Source: Candidatus Dojkabacteria bacterium
Lineage (GTDB): Bacteria > Patescibacteriota > Dojkabacteria > B142 > OLB20
Direction of reading: 5' to 3'
Assembly (NCBI GenBank): GCA_035444565.1
Contig: DAOMOX010000005.1
Coordinates: 5,045-69,044, forward strand
Length of the DNA stretch: 64,000 nt
Part shown: piece after piece, positions 5,319-13,873 of the stretch
How the letters are laid out: each line of letters begins with the position of its first letter
Position numbering within the stretch: the stretch's first letter is position 1
Translations under genes and position numbers: made by a program
Notes under the pieces: model-generated
Told to the model about the DNA's origin: nothing
Seen by the model: the letters and a program-made list of their open reading frames with translations, nothing else
Database searches by the model: none

Positions 5319-5925
5319 CAAAAAAATTATGAAAAGAATAATCATATTAACTATTGCGACAATCCTCCTTGTATATGCTGGAATGAATGCTCAAGAACTA
5401 ATTCAAAAAGAAAAAACCTCTTCACAAGAGTATGTTATTACGATTACTCCATCACCATCTATTGAAGTTCCCACACTTTCACACACTTTCGTACTTTCTG
5501 AAAATACAAATTCATCGCAGTCCAATCTAACACTAGAAAGTATTGGAAATTATAAAGGGGAAGTTATTAAATCAGAACAAACACCTTCTCAGTGGAAGTT
5601 ATCTCAAAATGACACATTTCTTCAAATTTCAACAAATCCTAGTGACACATCACCCTTTGGGGCTGACTTAGAACCTGATATTACATTATTAAATTCCCGA
5701 CTAACGGCTAATCAAATCTATAGAGTCAAAGTCGATGAAAGTTTCTACTTTTACACAAATAGATACTACAACGATTCATGTGGACAAAGATATTGTTCTA
5801 ATGGTCTTTTAAGCACCGATAGTGGCGAAGACCTGTCAATTTATTGTGTGCTTGGGGAAAGTAGTCCGGACGAACTCAGCTTCTGTGACAATATCGTAGT
5901 AAATCTAAACGATAAAAGTATTTAA
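5302..5925 (+). CDS. Secreted hypothetical protein
   Basis: N-terminal signal peptide 'MKRIIILTIATILLVYAGMNAQ' followed by a Ser/Thr-rich sequence. I recognise no other motifs. Confidence 0.45.
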   Translation: MLKSFNKKIMKRIIILTIATILLVYAGMNAQELIQKEKTSSQEYVITITPSPSIEVPTLSHTFVLSENTNSSQSNLTLESIGNYKGEVIKSEQTPSQWKLSQNDTFLQISTNPSDTSPFGADLEPDITLLNSRLTANQIYRVKVDESFYFYTNRYYNDSCGQRYCSNGLLSTDSGEDLSIYCVLGESSPDELSFCDNIVVNLNDKSI

Positions 5926-6392
5926 CCTGTGCATACATCTGGGAAGAAGAACGTAAACCCAGGGGTTCCGTCAAATTGTTGATAACAATTACTAGTACCA
6001 GAGATCATGGTCGCCATTACTGACGCGATTATCATTCTCGACAAGTAAAAAAGAACAATTCCAATCAACCACCTACCAAAGCGAGTTTTTGCGTCTTCGA
6101 TTTTGTTTGTATCACTCGTAAAGAACGAATAGGCTATGAGAATGAAATACGCCAACCATAGAAAACCACCTAGTGCCCAAGCAATATAGATGAACCTCAC
6201 CAATACAAACTCAAATGTTTGCAGTGTAGGTGGTCTACAATCAGGATTAATACTATCTACGGGACAATCATTTATAAAATCAGTCTGTCCACCTTGTGCA
6301 AGGACTGGCAAAGTACGAAAACCTAGTAAAGTTAAAGTTAAAAACAATGACAAAATTGTGCTTAAAATATATTTCTTCACAAAGCTTTTCAT
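5922..6392 (-). CDS. Paralog family member P1: secreted protein with the TM - 'TSDTNKIEDAK' loop - TM module and Cys-containing flanks
   Basis: Signal peptide ending '...LPVLAQ'. Two hydrophobic helices flank 'FFTSDTNKIEDAKTRFG', the same module as P2-P7. Cys-containing N- and C-terminal segments surround it. Confidence 0.6.
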   Translation of the reverse strand: MKSFVKKYILSTILSLFLTLTLLGFRTLPVLAQGGQTDFINDCPVDSINPDCRPPTLQTFEFVLVRFIYIAWALGGFLWLAYFILIAYSFFTSDTNKIEDAKTRFGRWLIGIVLFYLSRMIIASVMATMISGTSNCYQQFDGTPGFTFFFPDVCTG

Positions 6393-6497
6393 AACTAACT
6401 CAGTTTATCTCACGTGCAAACGAAAAACAACCTCGATGTATTAATAAAAAAAGAGTTACTAGATAGTAACTCTTTTTCTAATTTATTATGAAAGCAA

Positions 6498-7127
6498 TTA
6501 TGGAGAAGGATCAATAATTGTTGGATCAGTTCCCAACGGTGTACCTCCATTTAATGGATCTTTACAATCTGCACTCACTTGATCTTCAGTATATGTACCA
6601 GCTGCAAATAATGCATAATGTTCATTACACCATTCACACGCATTTCCTTCGACTCCTTCAGTAATACATATATTACAACCTACACTGTTAGGAGCACTTA
6701 AACAGACTTGGGTTAATGTTGGATCTACTCTTCCTGCTCCAAAGAATACGAATACCAATACAACCCCGACTATTCCTATTAACATCGCTGCTATTCCCAT
6801 AAATATAGCTTTGATTGCTTTCTGTGCTTCTTCAATTTTACCAGGGTCCCCTTGTGATTGGATGTATTTAAATGCTGCGATTAACGCATAGACTACTGCT
6901 ACAAGAATTATTAATCCAAGTGCTATGTACAATCCTGTTCGTACCCTACCTGAGATAAATGATGCTGTTCCTGAACCATCTTCTCCAAACAAATCGAAAA
7001 TTGCTTGTATTTGTTCTGGAATAAGGCTGGAGCTTGATGTTTGTGCGGACACGCCACTTGGTAAAAGCAAGATGGTGGAGAATACGCCCACAAATGCAAT
7101 CATTAATCTGCTTATATGAATTCTCAT
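6498..7127 (-). CDS. Paralog family member P2: signal peptide, TM - 'QGDPGKIEEAQKAIKAIF' - TM, then a Cys-rich C-terminal tail
   Basis: Signal peptide ending 'GVSAQ'. The N-terminal 150 aa are near-identical to P3 (7213..7782). The C-terminal tail holds nine Cys. Confidence 0.65.
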   Translation of the reverse strand: MRIHISRLMIAFVGVFSTILLLPSGVSAQTSSSSLIPEQIQAIFDLFGEDGSGTASFISGRVRTGLYIALGLIILVAVVYALIAAFKYIQSQGDPGKIEEAQKAIKAIFMGIAAMLIGIVGVVLVFVFFGAGRVDPTLTQVCLSAPNSVGCNICITEGVEGNACEWCNEHYALFAAGTYTEDQVSADCKDPLNGGTPLGTDPTIIDPSP

Positions 7128-7212
7128 GATTTGTTTTAAATAAATAAAATAATATATAAAATATTAATACATTAAGCTGATAAATTAAATTGTTATCACT
7201 TACTGTAAATAA

Positions 7213-7782
7213 TTATTGACATAAGTTATTATATTGGATTTGCTCCCCAGGATCCAAAGCTCCACCCCTTGCAATCTCTGAATACAGACCTTCACAAGTT
7301 CTGCAATCACCACCATTAATACCCTCTGCTCTACAGCTATCACAACCGACACTATTTGGTGCACTTAGACAGGTTTGGTAAAGATTTGGTTCAACTGGAC
7401 TAGTTCCAAAGAATACGAACACAAGAATCACTCCAACAATGGCAATCATCATAGCTGCGATACCCATAAAGATTGCCTTGATGGCTTTTTGGGCTTCCTC
7501 GATTTTTCCTGGATCACCTTGTGATTGGATATATTTAAAAGATGCTAGTAAAGCATAGATTACGGCAACTACAATAATCACTCCTAAAGCTATGAACAAT
7601 CCTACCCTCACCCTACTGACAATGAATGAAGCAGTACCAGATCCATCTGGTCCTAAGAGATTGAACAGACTTAAAATTTGATCTGGTAAAAAAGAGGGAT
7701 TAGTCTGAGCACTTACTCCGACCGAAAGTAGTACTAATATAAGTGGAGTCAGTAAAAGACTTGATAATACTTGTTTTTTCAT
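7213..7782 (-). CDS. Paralog family member P3, a tandem duplicate of P2
   Basis: It shares with P2 the sequence 'GSGTASFI.SRVR.GL.IALG.II.VAV.YAL.A.FKYIQSQGDPGKIEEAQKAIKAIFMGIAAM' nearly residue for residue. Its Cys-rich tail is different. Confidence 0.65.
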   Translation of the reverse strand: MKKQVLSSLLLTPLILVLLSVGVSAQTNPSFLPDQILSLFNLLGPDGSGTASFIVSRVRVGLFIALGVIIVVAVIYALLASFKYIQSQGDPGKIEEAQKAIKAIFMGIAAMMIAIVGVILVFVFFGTSPVEPNLYQTCLSAPNSVGCDSCRAEGINGGDCRTCEGLYSEIARGGALDPGEQIQYNNLCQ

Positions 7783-7850
7783 AATTTATTTATTAAAGAT
7801 AACAAATTTTAAACTAATTTAAATTAAATAGCAAAACAATTACAGCAACA

Positions 7851-8588
7851 TTATTCACATCGGAAACTGTTAGGATTATTATTCACACTACCTGTACAAG
7901 TTAGTCCTGCACAACATGACCCAACCGGATTCCCGTTATTATTACATAACTGACCACTCGATAAACATACATTTGAGACGTTACTGTTTCCGTGTGTGCT
8001 GTTCAGTGCACATCCACTTGGCATTGCACTTTGAAATTCAATGATATCGATATACTCCGTATCGCCATCTTCACAACAGACTACATAATATTGAGGCCTG
8101 GTTGATCCTGCAGACTCAATGTAATCGTCTAGCAGCTCAATATAAGATTTTCTAATCGCTTTCGAAGGATCATTGGGATCGGGTTCAAACTTGCCTTGGA
8201 AATAAAACCTCCCAGAGGCAGGACCACCTTGATTGCATTGCCTTAAGTTCTCAGCCCAATTCCAAGGTGCACCAACTCCCATAAATACAGCAGCAAAAGT
8301 AATCACTAAGAAAAACATTAGGAAATACGATATTCCGATCCATACACTTTTGATAATTTTCCATCCTTTCTCAATCTTCTGTGGATCTCCAAAACTAGAT
8401 GTAATACTAAATGCTCCATATATAGCAAATCCTAGCCATGCGACTACAAGAATTACCAAGAATAAGAACATCAATAAACCAATAGCCGAAAAAATACCAT
8501 TCGTAAAAAAGCCCCCATAAGATGGTAAATCAAAAACAAATTCAGTGCCTGGAATAGAGAATTGACTTGATATTGAGCTAAAATCCAT
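7851..8588 (-). CDS. Paralog family member P4: TM - 'FGDPQKIEKGWKIIKS' - TM with a long Cys-rich C-terminal domain
   Basis: The module sits near the N-terminus and no cleavable signal peptide is obvious. The C-terminal 150 aa hold about 14 Cys ('CCEDGD', 'SCCAGLTCTG'). Confidence 0.6.
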   Translation of the reverse strand: MDFSSISSQFSIPGTEFVFDLPSYGGFFTNGIFSAIGLLMFLFLVILVVAWLGFAIYGAFSITSSFGDPQKIEKGWKIIKSVWIGISYFLMFFLVITFAAVFMGVGAPWNWAENLRQCNQGGPASGRFYFQGKFEPDPNDPSKAIRKSYIELLDDYIESAGSTRPQYYVVCCEDGDTEYIDIIEFQSAMPSGCALNSTHGNSNVSNVCLSSGQLCNNNGNPVGSCCAGLTCTGSVNNNPNSFRCE

Positions 8589-8629
8589 ATTATTAATTTT
8601 TCAATATAATTACTAAATAACAGACTTTA

Positions 8630-9349
8630 TTACATACATTTCTTAAAACCTGCCACAGGATCAAGTACGCAGGAATCTTGTGCGTCAGCACAAACCGTAT
8701 AACCACCACAATTACCACCCCTAGGAACGACCCTTGGCTGTGGCACAATACTTATATCAAATAAACTTCCCGTCAGTCCCAATAATAATGATACTAATTG
8801 TATAATACCAACAAATGAGAGACTCAATATCACACCTACAACAGCATTTCTGAAAATTTTCACTGCCTTTTCGATTTTTTCTGGGTTATCTGCGGCCGTA
8901 GATCTTTCCCACACACCCCACATTCCCATAATAACAGTGGCAAATACTATTAAGCTTATCATGGCGTAGAACCCCAGTCGCACTAGGATAACTGTACAAT
9001 ACGGATCGTCGGCTGGTCTATCTATCGTTTCTGGATCTGGGCATAATTCTAATCCAAATATATTAAATGCTTCACTATATCTCCCAGGAATATCGTCGTA
9101 CATAATTTCAAAGGATAGATTATGACAATTGACTTGGTCTGACTCGAGACAATTTAATCCCTGGTCTACACAAGCTTTATTACACAGCGAACTACATACA
9201 ATCGGATCTTCTGGAAATCTTGTTGCGAGATATTTTGAACATTCCGGATCGATTACCAATTCTACATTAGCTCCTTGCGCATTAACATTAAATCCCTGAA
9301 TAAAGGTAACGATTAAGATTCCAAATATTAAAAATAGTAATTTCTTCAT
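8630..9349 (-). CDS. Paralog family member P5: signal peptide, Cys-rich N-domain, TM - 'ADNPEKIEKAVKIF' - TM, short Cys tail
   Basis: Signal peptide ending 'VNAQ'. About 12 Cys in the N-domain. The module is conserved. Confidence 0.6.
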   Translation of the reverse strand: MKKLLFLIFGILIVTFIQGFNVNAQGANVELVIDPECSKYLATRFPEDPIVCSSLCNKACVDQGLNCLESDQVNCHNLSFEIMYDDIPGRYSEAFNIFGLELCPDPETIDRPADDPYCTVILVRLGFYAMISLIVFATVIMGMWGVWERSTAADNPEKIEKAVKIFRNAVVGVILSLSFVGIIQLVSLLLGLTGSLFDISIVPQPRVVPRGGNCGGYTVCADAQDSCVLDPVAGFKKCM

Positions 9350-9705
9350 GAAGGATTGGTGATTAATAAATCAATGCCAAAAATTGCTCCGATTGTCGCA
9401 ATTATCAATGGTGCCAGCATAATTAATGCAAAACCAGTAGTGGAATAACCTATTATTAAAATAGCCTTTTTCGCTTTTTCTGGATCGGCACCTGCGGTCA
9501 GCCTGATATATCCAGCATAAAGAAGCATCGCTAAATAAAGCAATACTGCGACAGGACGTATCCACCGAGAAATGGTACTGATAGAAGTTGCAAAATCCTT
9601 AAATGCATCGCTGACGGGATTTATTAAGCCTACAGCCTGAATATTACTAGGAAAAATAATAAACAACGCTGAAATAAGAATTAATACTAAAAATGCTTTT
9701 TTCAT
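9346..9705 (-). CDS. Paralog family member P6: minimal 119-aa form (signal peptide + TM - 'GADPEKAKKAIL' - TM) with VirB2/TrbC-pilin-like topology
   Basis: Signal peptide 'MKKAFLVLILISALFIIFPSNIQA', then two hydrophobic helices separated by a short charged loop. It overlaps P5's start by 4 nt. Confidence 0.6.
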   Translation of the reverse strand: MKKAFLVLILISALFIIFPSNIQAVGLINPVSDAFKDFATSISTISRWIRPVAVLLYLAMLLYAGYIRLTAGADPEKAKKAILIIGYSTTGFALIMLAPLIIATIGAIFGIDLLITNPS

Positions 9706-9709
9706 TTAT

Positions 9710-10858
9710 TTATCCTAAGAAATTAATTGGCAATAACTGTAATAGATTGATACCTAAGAACCTCAGTAACGGGATGGTAACTGCTAATGTAATCAACGCC
9801 CAAATAGATGAAGTAATCATATCTTTGCCTTCCTGGATTTTTGCGGGATCGGTACTTTGTCTCAAAATTGACCCCCACATTATTCTCAACACTCCAAAGC
9901 CCCCTAACATACCGAAACCTATTTGAAAAAGTCTTGTAATGAATTCATTTTGCCTTGTATCAACACATCCGATAGAACTATAAACATAAGCTTTGGGTGC
10001 ATTTGGATCATTGGGATCGATGTTCTTCATAAAGCAGTCTAGACAGTTTTGTCTTTCACCTAAATCAAGAATTTCACTACATGAGGTGATGTCAGGATTA
10101 ATTGCAATCAATGTTAGGACAACAGGATCTTCAGCTTTCTGATAAGCACAGAATTTGCCAGAAAGCGAAACCCCATCCTGGAAAGAGCCTTTTAACGGAC
10201 TACCAACCGCAAGACATTTATAATCACCTCTTTGTTCCTCTGTAAGTGGTCTATTCGTTGTATTATTCTCTTCTAATAGTTCAGTACCCTCTATCAAACA
10301 AGCATCGGATGGACATGAGAATAATGTTGCGCCAATTTTATAAGGGAAACTAGAGGTTGTAGCTGTCACTTCTCGAGAACTTGTGCTTGGAACAGAATCA
10401 ACTTTGGTGTTATCACTTAACACACATTCGACTCCGATATCCTGTTTTGTCCCAGCTGGACAACACTTAAAACTACGTTGATTAACTGGGATCCCCACTG
10501 GGTATTCCCGAGGACAACATCCACGATCTGTATATCCTGATTCTCCAAGAACAATAGGGATGATTGAACCTGTATCACAAAACTTTACGTACCTCTCGTT
10601 TGCAGTTCCTACTGGATCATCTATTTTCGATATTTGTAAAGATCTATCTAATGTACAAATTCTAAATTCCTTGGCTTCTGTCAGTGATAAACTTATACTG
10701 CCGCTATTAGAATTTCTAAACATGTCCCTAGTAATCTCATACTCACCTACTGCATTATTACAGTAATCGGATTCTACCCAAGCCTGCTGTGCACTTACTC
10801 CCTGAGGAAATACTGCAATTAACAGAAACACCCCTATGATTAATCCTAAGAATTTCAT
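9710..10858 (-). CDS. Paralog family member P7: signal peptide, about 300-aa Cys-rich extracellular domain, TM - 'STDPAKIQEGKDMI' - TM
   Basis: Signal peptide ending 'GVSAQ'. More than 20 Cys in the N-domain and the conserved module at the C-terminus. It starts 3 nt after the ATPase stop. Confidence 0.6.
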   Translation of the reverse strand: MKFLGLIIGVFLLIAVFPQGVSAQQAWVESDYCNNAVGEYEITRDMFRNSNSGSISLSLTEAKEFRICTLDRSLQISKIDDPVGTANERYVKFCDTGSIIPIVLGESGYTDRGCCPREYPVGIPVNQRSFKCCPAGTKQDIGVECVLSDNTKVDSVPSTSSREVTATTSSFPYKIGATLFSCPSDACLIEGTELLEENNTTNRPLTEEQRGDYKCLAVGSPLKGSFQDGVSLSGKFCAYQKAEDPVVLTLIAINPDITSCSEILDLGERQNCLDCFMKNIDPNDPNAPKAYVYSSIGCVDTRQNEFITRLFQIGFGMLGGFGVLRIMWGSILRQSTDPAKIQEGKDMITSSIWALITLAVTIPLLRFLGINLLQLLPINFLG

Positions 10859-10861
10859 AAT

Positions 10862-13438
10862 TTATTTAATTGTATATTTATTTAAACTTTCTATGAATAT
10901 CGTACTTCCACTTTGTAATTTCCTCTCGATTATTAACTGAGCAACTAGATCTTCAATTGTGTCTGTCACCACTCTTCTTAATTCTCTCGCTCCGTATAAA
11001 TTATTGTAACCTAAATTTGCCAACTCTTGTAGCAAGTGTCTACTATATTCAAGTTTTATCCCTTTATCAAACAACCTATCTGCAACTGACTTCATCATTA
11101 AATTGGCTATTTCTTCTACCTCCATTCTAAGCAAAGGCTTGAACATAATCAACTTATCAAATCTATTGAGGAACTCAATCCTCAAGAAATTTCTTAAAGT
11201 TGGCATAATTGCTTCCAGAACTTCACTGTAACGGCGACCTTGAGAAATTAAATCTGCAATTTCTTTCGATGCGACATTAGAAGTTGCAATAATTATCGTA
11301 TTGGTGAAAATTACTTCTCTACCCATTCCATCAGTGATTTTTCCCTCATCCAAAATTTGCAAGAATAAATCAAGTACTCGAGGATTCGCTTTTTCGATTT
11401 CATCAAGTAGAATTAATGCGTATGGTTTTGCTTTTACCGCCTCCGTCAAATACCCTCCCACGAACTCCTCACCTTCTTGCATACCGATTAGTCTTCCTAG
11501 ATTTCTATCTTCTTGGTATTCAGACATATCGAGCCTAATCATCTTCTCTTCATCACCAAAGTATAGTTCAGCGACTGTTTTTGCCAACTCGGTTTTACCA
11601 ACTCCAGTTGGTCCGAAAAATAGGAAACTCGCAACTGGTCTGTTTTTATTGGTAAGACCAGCTCTGGATCTTCGAAGTGCAGCAGCTACCGCGTCCACTG
11701 CCTGATGTTGACCGATAACTCTCTTATGAAGTTCGATTTCGAGTTTATTGAGAAAATCTGATTCTTTCATACTAATACTTCCGATTTCTACACCAACTTT
11801 TCCTGCTACCAATTTATCCACAACCTCTCGGTCAACCACAGTCTTACCTACTGCAAGTGCACGAGAAATCGCTTCTTCTAATAAATTAATAGCTTTATCA
11901 GGTAACACCCTCTCAAAGGCAAACTTGTGTGATAACTCGACAGAACGATCCGCAGCTTCAAAAGCAATTTTGACTTTGTATGTTTTTTCAAGTTCAGGAA
12001 TGAAGTCAAATAGTATTTGAAGTGCAATTTCATCAGTAGGCACCTCCATTTTCATTTTATTAAACAAAGCATCAAGAGCTTTGTATGGTTTTATGTGTCT
12101 AGTGTATCCTTCAACAGAACTAGTTGCTATGATTCTGAGCTTGTGAACATTCATTGCATCAGTAAGTAGATTTATAATCTCTGCACTCAACTCTTTCTTT
12201 ACATTGACCAGCTCATCTAAATCATCAATCACAAGAATAATATTTTTAGCTTTTGCCACTTCTTGGACTATATTTTCGACCGTGGCTTTAAATTGTTGTT
12301 CGTTCTCAGCCAATGCATATGCCCTATTGAAATCAAAACCAACCAAACGCATATCTTGAATTATTTTGGGGACGTCCTCTACCACCATTTTAATTGCGAA
12401 GTTTTTTATAAATGTAGTTTTACCTACTCCTGGTTGCCCCAGTACTAGAGATGCACTTGATTCCCCTGACGTTACCATTGCGATTAAGTTCTTTAGTTCA
12501 TTTTCTCTTGCGTAAGATAATTCGAAATTGCCTTGGACGATTTCCGCGGTGAAATCACGTGAAAATTTAACCAAACTTGGGGAAAACACTGAAGTGTAAG
12601 CGCGATTAACCGTCGAAGTTGGTTTAAGCATGCTTTTTGTTCTGATGATTTGGAGATACCTGGCTCTCTTACTGAGATTCTGCGCCCATAGTCTCATCGC
12701 ATCAACTTCATTCTCGCCTACTTCAAGTTTCAGTAGTTCATTTTTAAGATCGGTTTTGCAAAGATGGATAAATAGAGACAACTCATCTGCCTTCTTGAAT
12801 CCATTCTCTATTGCAATAATAAAACTCTCACGCAAAACCAATGCTAATTTTTCTTCATCGAAATTCACATTATTTACTGTATGAATCAAATTATTTAACG
12901 TCTCAACACTCAATCCTAAGCGAGTACTAGCTGTTTTGACAAGTTCGAGAAAACTCAGCTCTTCTAGAATTTTCTCTAATATGTTACTTCCGTCTTTCCT
13001 TGCAAGAACTTCATCAATTAAATTTATTAAATCTTTATCAAAGTAGTCAGTAATATCTATTTCTGCTGGATTTTCTGCTTTTTCAAATTTAACACGGAGT
13101 CCGTCAAAATCTCTTTGTCCAAACTTGTCCAAAAAGACATTTCTATCTCTAACCAAATAAGCACCATAAGAGATTAATCCGAGCCCCATATAGAGAATTA
13201 ACTTTGCAAACGTGTCTACATAAATAATTTCAGAAAGAATGAATCTTGAATTGAAGTACGCCTCGTAAAGAGCAAAAATACAAATAATTACAACAGTGAA
13301 GAAAATTAATATCCACCCAATAATAAATTCGATTTTCTGGAGTTCTTTCCTCAGCCCAAACTCTTTCGATAAATAACCGAAGTTAATTTTTAATTTTGTT
13401 TTTCTATACTCACCAAGTGAGTTGATACGTTTAAGCAT
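10862..13438 (-). CDS. Membrane-anchored Hsp100/Clp-family double-AAA+ ATPase (ClpB/ClpC-like D1 + D2) with a two-TM N-terminal region replacing Clp_N; no ClpP-docking loop
   Basis: D1 Walker A 'GQPGVGKTT' and Walker B 'ILVIDDLDEL'. D2 has 'GPTGVGKTELAKT', 'ILLDEIEKANPRVLDLFLQILDEGKITDGMGREV', sensor 'IIIATSN', 'EFLNRFDKLIMFKPL' and 'GARELRRVV'. N-terminal TMs are 'IIGWILIFFTVVIICIFALY' and 'LILYMGLGLISYGAYLV'. There is no long coiled-coil M-domain and no IGF/IGL loop. Confidence 0.8.
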   Translation of the reverse strand: MLKRINSLGEYRKTKLKINFGYLSKEFGLRKELQKIEFIIGWILIFFTVVIICIFALYEAYFNSRFILSEIIYVDTFAKLILYMGLGLISYGAYLVRDRNVFLDKFGQRDFDGLRVKFEKAENPAEIDITDYFDKDLINLIDEVLARKDGSNILEKILEELSFLELVKTASTRLGLSVETLNNLIHTVNNVNFDEEKLALVLRESFIIAIENGFKKADELSLFIHLCKTDLKNELLKLEVGENEVDAMRLWAQNLSKRARYLQIIRTKSMLKPTSTVNRAYTSVFSPSLVKFSRDFTAEIVQGNFELSYARENELKNLIAMVTSGESSASLVLGQPGVGKTTFIKNFAIKMVVEDVPKIIQDMRLVGFDFNRAYALAENEQQFKATVENIVQEVAKAKNIILVIDDLDELVNVKKELSAEIINLLTDAMNVHKLRIIATSSVEGYTRHIKPYKALDALFNKMKMEVPTDEIALQILFDFIPELEKTYKVKIAFEAADRSVELSHKFAFERVLPDKAINLLEEAISRALAVGKTVVDREVVDKLVAGKVGVEIGSISMKESDFLNKLEIELHKRVIGQHQAVDAVAAALRRSRAGLTNKNRPVASFLFFGPTGVGKTELAKTVAELYFGDEEKMIRLDMSEYQEDRNLGRLIGMQEGEEFVGGYLTEAVKAKPYALILLDEIEKANPRVLDLFLQILDEGKITDGMGREVIFTNTIIIATSNVASKEIADLISQGRRYSEVLEAIMPTLRNFLRIEFLNRFDKLIMFKPLLRMEVEEIANLMMKSVADRLFDKGIKLEYSRHLLQELANLGYNNLYGARELRRVVTDTIEDLVAQLIIERKLQSGSTIFIESLNKYTIK

Positions 13439-13766
13439 TCAGTAAAAAAGATGCGAATCCGTAAATCGGAATCACAGGTAAAATCAGATAAATTATGAAA
13501 ATTATCAAAATGATAGGAAGAAGAAGTAATTCAATAAATAACCCCATCAAAACCCATGTCAAACGTATAGGAAAAGCAATAATACGACCCATCCTGGTGT
13601 AGTCCTGATAAAGTGGCTGAAATAGATTTTTAAGCATCGGTGGGACATTCAACAAATTCATCAAGAACATCCATCCACCAAAAACTTTACCCAAGATAAT
13701 CTTGGATTGGACAAGGTACCACCAAATAAAATAATTTAGAAAATATCGATTTAGTAAATTGAGCAT
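13431..13766 (-). CDS. Small polytopic membrane protein, first gene of the ATPase / paralog operon
   Basis: 111 aa with three or four hydrophobic segments. Its stop overlaps the ATPase start by 8 nt, which indicates translational coupling. Confidence 0.45.
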   Translation of the reverse strand: MLNLLNRYFLNYFIWWYLVQSKIILGKVFGGWMFLMNLLNVPPMLKNLFQPLYQDYTRMGRIIAFPIRLTWVLMGLFIELLLLPIILIIFIIYLILPVIPIYGFASFLLNA

Positions 13767-13842
13767 TTTTAGAGTTATTTCTCTAATTGTAGTTGAATTT
13801 GGTTACTCTATCAATGAAAAATCTAAACTACTATTTATAACA

Positions 13843-13873
13843 AAAAAGATCCCGCACTAAATGCGGGATCTAA
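13843..13873 (-). terminator. Rho-independent terminator of the groESL operon
   Basis: Perfect inverted repeat gatcccgca / tgcgggatc with a 5-nt loop, followed on the minus strand by a T-run. It lies just downstream of the groEL stop at 13897. Confidence 0.7.

Follow-up and report, generated by a model that had tools for sequence, protein, structure and literature searches.

A predicted membrane-anchored Clp/Hsp100 ATPase family of Patescibacteria encoded beside a small membrane protein

To our knowledge, the characterised class-I Hsp100/Clp ATPases (ClpA, ClpB, ClpC, ClpE, ClpL, ClpV and Hsp104) are all soluble. A Candidatus Dojkabacteria genome harbours an 858-aa ORF of this class which starts with two strongly hydrophobic helices and is directly followed by an array of pilin-like genes. 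The question raised by this locus is what a Clp-type motor might do at a membrane, and on which proteins it would act. The window, i.e. the whole stretch of DNA analysed here, comprises 64,000 nucleotides, and the features on which our argument depends are collected in Table 1.

The initial annotation had recognised a Clp/Hsp100 double-ring ATPase, and this assignment held. Pfam matched AAA_2 (PF07724, 7e-51) and ClpB_D2-small (PF10431, 4.8e-19), in addition to PF00004 twice and AAA_lid_9 (PF17871), and an AF2 model of the full-length protein (pLDDT 90.7) superposed on ClpC and ClpB protomers with TMt values of 0.85-0.89 (Foldseek E 1e-45 to 1e-50). The protein hence displays the tandem AAA+ modules of the class, with a Clp-type D2 and its D2-small domain, as well as a Clp_N double repeat. 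The nucleotide-binding motifs cited initially were recovered at residues 334 (GQPGVGKT), 609 (GPTGVGKT), 718 (ATSN) and 816 (GARELRR). From the N-terminus, the order of elements appears to be a relic zinc-ribbon hairpin, two transmembrane (TM) helices, a linker of about 30 residues, Clp_N, D1 and D2.

Table 1. Position of the features of the ATPase locus within the window
Feature	Position	Strand	Basis or remark
ATPase ORF, 858 aa	10862..13438	minus	membrane-anchored class-I Clp/Hsp100
Cytoplasmic beta-hairpin, residues 5-19	13382..13426	minus	AF2 strands 5-11, 14-19
TM1 helix, residues 30-63, core 38-57	13250..13351	minus	hydropathy, AF2 pLDDT >90
TM2, residues 77-95, chain back to cytoplasm	13154..13210	minus	KD 1.7, AF2 helix
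Cryptic Clp_N double-repeat domain, residues 129-268	12635..13054	minus	family profile and structure model
Family-signature linker LKPTSTVNRAYTSVFSPSL, residues 271-289, between Clp_N and D1	12572..12628	minus	N278 and T282 nearly invariant
D1 AAA+ module, degenerate, residues ~300-560	11759..12541	minus	ClpB alignment, family columns
D1 Walker A, kept	12416-12439	minus	
D1 Walker B, reads VIDD	12221-12238	minus	
D2 AAA+ module, catalytically complete, residues 561-858	10865..11758	minus	
D2 Walker A	11591-11614	minus	
D2 non-canonical pore loop GMQEGEEFVGG	11453-11485	minus	
D2 Walker B DE	11399-11416	minus	
D2 GAR sensor-2	10985-10993	minus	
Partner gene, 111-aa small membrane protein	13431..13766	minus	8-nt overlap with ATPase start
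Promoter-like site before partner gene	13786-13814	minus	consensus scan only
groEL terminator hairpin	13847-13871	minus	consensus scan only
Array of seven VirB2-like pilin paralogs	5922..10858	minus	PF18895 / NF045849 matches, topology
Pilin paralog 1	9710-10858	minus	
Pilin paralog 2	9346-9705	minus	
Pilin paralog 3	8630-9349	minus	
Pilin paralog 4	7851-8588	minus	
Pilin paralog 5	7213-7782	minus	
Pilin paralog 6	6498-7127	minus	
Pilin paralog 7	5922-6392	minus	

Two elements of other Clp proteins are missing, as had been proposed. The Walker A lysines of the two modules (K340 and K615) lie 275 aa apart, compared with 399 in E. coli ClpB, and the alignment to ClpB is broken around the absent ClpB residues ~410-525, all of which speaks against a ClpB-type M-domain. 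The alignment to ClpA forms one unbroken stretch (query 302-847 versus ClpA 182-731), and the AF2 model contains short lid helices only over residues 469-564. Similarly, a ClpP loop is absent from 11156-11284: no IGF, IGL, LGF or VGF tripeptide was found after D2 sensor-1 (residues 722-755), in a region that aligns without gaps to the loop-less ClpB and whose 34-35-aa spacing is kept by 84 of the 87 relatives; an [ILVM]G[FL] loop occurs there in none of the 87 except one truncated sequence. The first absence implies that there is no ClpB-style coupling to DnaK, and the second that action is protease-free, so that the ATPase would work with neither.

Family members are named only "AAA family ATPase" or "ClpC" in databases, generic names which hide the family, the latter also wrongly implying a ClpP partner. 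Taken at face value, such names describe an ordinary ClpC/ClpA-type unfoldase that would feed ClpP through a non-canonical contact. The overall fold and the identity of about 35% to ClpC agree with that description, but it is barely credible in view of the missing loop, the gapless alignment to ClpB, scores far under every NCBIfam Clp equivalog cutoff, and the lack of both UVR and a short M-domain (UVR, PF02151, is not among the best 25 of 42 Pfam matches). A ClpP partner was rejected on the missing docking loop, this alignment and the sub-cutoff scores.

The statement that both nucleotide-binding domains are intact is correct for D2 and fails for D1. In the alignment of D1 to E. coli and T. 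thermophilus ClpB, the positions of the E. coli Walker-B Glu279, Arg fingers R331/R332 and pore Tyr251 are occupied by Asp (VIDDLDE), Ala/Leu (ALDALFNK) and Asn, respectively, and the AAA_lid_9 match in D1 is restricted to profile positions 2-60 of 104. Across the family the Walker-B Glu column reads D in 36 sequences, N in 32 and E in only 7, the Arg fingers are missing throughout and the loss of the pore Tyr is likewise family-wide (87 relatives; 74 sequences, i.e. the query and 73 loci), whereas Walker A, Walker B, sensor-1, Arg finger and sensor-2 of D2 are 100% conserved in the same set. D1 is a degenerate ring in which nucleotide is probably bound but unhydrolysed: it keeps the P-loop lysine without the catalytic Glu, Arg fingers and pore Tyr, most likely serving as a nucleotide-binding assembly ring, and D2, with every catalytic element, would be the sole motor. 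In the D2 pore loop, the HMMER alignment sets Glu657 opposite the tyrosine of the ClpB GYVG motif, with Phe659 two residues later, and the tip of the loop is acidic.

The membrane tether and the two hydrophobic N-terminal helices of the initial annotation were both borne out. TM1 reaches a Kyte-Doolittle value of 3.06 over 19 residues, with zero charged residues in FIIGWILIFFTVVIICIFAL; the C-terminal flank of TM2 is basic (VRDR); and flanking K/R residues, ten in the N-tail and one in the loop, obey the positive-inside rule. The AF2 helices agree with the hydropathic segments, and a hydrophobic segment occurs at the matching position in nearly all of 86 full-length relatives. A buried soluble helix pair was rejected in view of the excessive hydrophobicity, the membrane-type charge flanks and the retention of position without retention of sequence. 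Hydropathy, the positive-inside rule and the AF2 model together predict a hairpin-anchored protein with both N- and C-termini in the cytoplasm. The beta-hairpin ahead of TM1 has no Cys and is a remnant of the CxxCxGxG zinc ribbon found in relatives from the larger of the two clades defined below (clade B), and DnaJ_CXXCXGXG matches were obtained in relatives. Contrary to the claim that this N-terminal region replaces a Clp_N domain, the membrane hairpin sits in front of one: the residues behind it fold as a Clp_N double repeat. This cryptic domain was unseen by Pfam and NCBIfam with the query sequence alone, a PDB sequence search with the N-terminal 305 aa gave no match, and its detection needed a family profile together with a structure model.

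The explanation that we prefer, and to which we give an even chance of being right, is that the ATPase is a D2-driven, protease-independent extractase or remodeller of the membrane face, with pilin-like proteins as candidate clients. The N-terminal helical hairpin would tether a hexameric ATPase to the membrane on its cytoplasmic side. The anchor lies on the substrate-entry side, which places the N-domain/D1 face against the bilayer, and the resulting ring geometry would be of the FtsH or Msp1 type. From this position the ATPase could grip cytoplasm-exposed segments of membrane proteins and pull, leading to extraction or remodelling. The non-canonical D2 pore loop with its acidic tip is a counter-point to extraction.

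The same geometry bears on an export translocase similar to PTEX/HSP101, in which the hexamer's twelve TM helices, together with the small partner, would form a channel and unfolded paralogs would be pushed through it. The membrane tether and the co-operonic envelope proteins are compatible with such a device, which is nonetheless very improbable: with an N-terminal anchor the entry face is at the membrane and the D2 exit opens to the cytoplasm, which reverses the PTEX arrangement; in addition, ordinary Sec-type signal peptides are present on six of the seven paralogs, and D1 has no pore loops. A PTEX-like exporter was discarded on the wrong polarity of the ring with respect to the membrane. 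Where the initial annotation spoke of an unfoldase or translocase, protease independence and membrane tethering stand, while translocation is disfavoured by the cytoplasmic exit face of D2.

Directly upstream of the ATPase, and overlapping its start, lies a gene for a small membrane protein that has a WWY...KNxFxPMYGQxDxxGRxISFxxR motif followed by a C-terminal TM segment and matches neither Pfam nor NCBIfam. Of 108 family loci, at least 75 have a homolog of about 110 aa directly before the ATPase; the distance between the two genes ranges from -57 to +206 nt and is mostly below 30. The two proteins would be made together through translational coupling, and the 111-aa protein may be a stoichiometric, physically bound partner of the ATPase. 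The initial annotation was silent on this gene, the universal partner of the family.

We propose a Patescibacteria TM-Clp family, defined by four traits: a TM hairpin before Clp_N, a KPxxxVNRAYT linker, an intact D2 behind a degenerate D1, and a gene for a small membrane protein just upstream of the ATPase. The query combines all four, and they recur among its relatives. An exhaustive representative search recovered the family across Patescibacteria in 145 clusters at 50% identity, while word-indexed homolog searches with the N-terminal region yielded just 3-5 near-identical fragments. When the linker motif was searched as a hand-made degenerate DNA pattern in a collection of one genome per species, 108 of 119 matches belonged to family genes; each match was returned as a fixed 8-kb block, which leaves many neighbourhoods incomplete and makes our neighbour counts lower bounds. 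A literature search for a membrane-anchored Hsp100 or for such Clp/AAA+ proteins in Patescibacteria returned nothing relevant, and the family appears undescribed so far. Neighbour-joining on the D1-D2 core, with the pore loop left out, placed the query in a monophyletic clade (clade A), all 16 sequences of which have [FY]xGG in the D2 pore loop. Clade B lacks pilin arrays. In 55 of its 57 sequences the D2 pore aromatic is lost, which excludes processive threading as a mechanism common to the whole family.

A probable counterpart of the pair is found in S. epibionticum, where SEML1_0700 (860 aa, "AAA family ATPase") overlaps SEML1_0701 (127 aa) and adjoins murT/gatD/murB. The two genes behave identically in Tn-seq: neither is essential, and loss of either leads to a late growth defect (PMC10633639 supplements). 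This common phenotype fits a two-gene functional unit. The D2 of SEML1_0700 lies ~56 residues closer to the N-terminus than that of the query. Canonical ClpC and ClpP are also present in this species, which makes TM-Clp an extra, specialised paralog.

These observations bear on two further explanations. One is quality control close to the membrane, with the ATPase as a stress chaperone or disaggregase removing misfolded or aggregated proteins from the membrane surface and the pilin genes as neighbours by descent. Both the window and about 12 relatives have groES-groEL directly upstream of the partner-ATPase pair, the family persists together with its small partner far outside the pilin-linked clade, a Clp_N of the aggregate- or adaptor-binding kind is present, and the probable S. 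epibionticum ortholog is dispensable with only a late growth defect. We regard this role as possible, if rather unlikely: groESL is parted from the ATPase operon by a strong terminator, followed by a promoter-like site, the M-domain for cooperation with DnaK, required in canonical bacterial disaggregation, is absent, D1 is without the pore Tyr and clade B also without the D2 aromatic, and S. epibionticum has canonical ClpC and ClpP besides its specialised paralog. The other is a Torsin-like switch, whereby the ATP cycle of D2 would serve to gate or remodel either the small partner or an enzyme of envelope synthesis encoded nearby, with no polypeptide translocation. The clade-B pore losses in both rings and the unvarying association with a small membrane protein would suit it, as would a MraY/WecA-type gene downstream in 34 loci (a minimum), murT/gatD/murB beside SEML1_0700 and a weak Torsin Pfam match at residues 563-627. 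It is nevertheless distinctly unlikely, given that the clade of the query retains an aromatic-hydrophobic-Gly (FVG) in the D2 loop, that D2 has its own Arg finger and sensor-2, which Torsins do not, and that Clp_N is still present.

Downstream, the tight co-operonic link with paralogous genes was corroborated: the first follows the ATPase after a 3-nt gap, and a pilin array comes right after the ATPase in 12 of 15 clade-A loci, the remaining three blocks stopping short of the downstream region. Their products, initially taken as secreted, appear to be membrane-embedded VirB2-like pilins with two TM helices and, in six of seven, a signal peptide, and not soluble proteins. PF18895 matches the 119-aa paralog above its gathering score (36.8 vs 26.6) and four others below threshold (E 5e-4 to 6e-3), and the NCBIfam pilin-like model gives 16.7-26.6 bits for a cutoff of 40. 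Each of the seven has a conserved DPxK loop between the two TM helices, and all except the 119-aa paralog, which has none, carry 4-16 ectodomain Cys. A scan of a subset of the window ORFs turned up no virB4, virB6, virD4 or clpP. For a pilus to be assembled, an ATPase must extract VirB2 from the membrane (PMC9259494); arrays of 2-11 VirB2 genes are known from Patescibacteria, with no ATPase of this type mentioned alongside (PMC12102498), and are essential in at least one Saccharibacterium (PMC10633639).

Under the extractase reading, the co-operonic pilins would be the candidate clients in clade A, their DPxK loop being the sole cytoplasmic element to be gripped, in parallel with the pilin extraction ascribed to VirB4/VirB11 in classical T4SS. 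A narrower version, which we consider unlikely, makes the ATPase and its partner a dedicated Clp-type pilin dislocase: the hexamer under the membrane would recognise the DPxK loop and lever the pilins out of the bilayer for surface-filament assembly or recycling, doing the job of VirB4/VirB11 in these monoderm ultrasmall bacteria. A dedicated link to the paralogs, as first suggested, holds for one clade and does not extend to the rest of the family, whose universal partner is the small membrane protein upstream. Several observations weigh against the pilin link itself. It is confined to one monophyletic clade, counts as a single evolutionary event and may reflect a gene order passed on by descent. 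A cytoplasmic AAA+ motor that pulls would, by itself, be unable to push pilins outward, nor could it drag disulfide-rich ectodomains inward.

A phylum-wide, membrane-integral and D2-only Hsp100 with a small membrane protein would widen the known scope of this motor family. Patescibacteria lead a host-attached life and rely on their envelope machinery, and the family is a candidate for membrane and surface protein handling in these bacteria, the clade-A ATPase in particular being a candidate for the missing energiser of the enigmatic VirB2-like pilin arrays. The dislocase, if real, would be without precedent both as an Hsp100 machine integral to the membrane and as a Clp ATPase linked to pilus biogenesis.

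Among known systems, ClpB/Hsp104 and ClpC share with the ATPase the Clp_N domain, two AAA+ modules and the D2-small domain, D2 identity being 32-36% with all catalytic motifs in common, and ClpB is likewise devoid of a ClpP loop. Unlike ClpB/Hsp104, the ATPase has an N-terminal TM hairpin anchor and an obligatory small membrane-protein neighbour, no coiled-coil M-domain, a D1 without Walker-B Glu, Arg fingers and pore Tyr, and a D2 pore loop other than GYVG; its score with the NCBIfam ClpB model TIGR03346 (449.2 bits) is below the cutoff of 1232.1. ClpA has equal D1-D2 spacing and no M-domain either, but is soluble, docks to ClpP through an IGL loop and has a D1 that is active and bears pore loops (TIGR02639, 379 bits, below the cutoff of 993). 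ClpV/TssH was rejected on a sub-cutoff score (TIGR03345, 379.5 bits vs 885) and on context: no T6SS genes were found near the ATPase, whose neighbours are groESL, the small membrane protein and VirB2-like genes.

The closest functional likeness is to membrane-anchored AAA+ proteins. In FtsH and Msp1/ATAD1, the N-terminal anchor sets the substrate-entry face at the bilayer for pulling proteins from the membrane, an anchor geometry common to the ATPase, the homology being limited to the AAA+ fold. Unlike it, they have a single classical-clade AAA+ ring and no Clp_N, FtsH with an M41 protease; Pfam found no M41 peptidase domain in the ATPase, which has two Clp-type AAA+ modules and hence is no FtsH. 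Torsins resemble clade B in being membrane-associated relatives of the Clp/Hsp100 D2 with no aromatic pore loop and with membrane-protein cofactors, but are single-ring, lumenal and without their own Arg finger, whereas the ATPase keeps the D2 Arg finger and sensor-2 and, in the clade of the query, the pore aromatic. Finally, VirB4/VirB11 of type IV secretion exemplify cytoplasmic ATPases acting on membrane-embedded VirB2-type pilins (PMC9259494); they belong to ATPase families unrelated to the one described here, which is co-operonic with seven VirB2-like genes and whose role in pilin handling is hypothetical.

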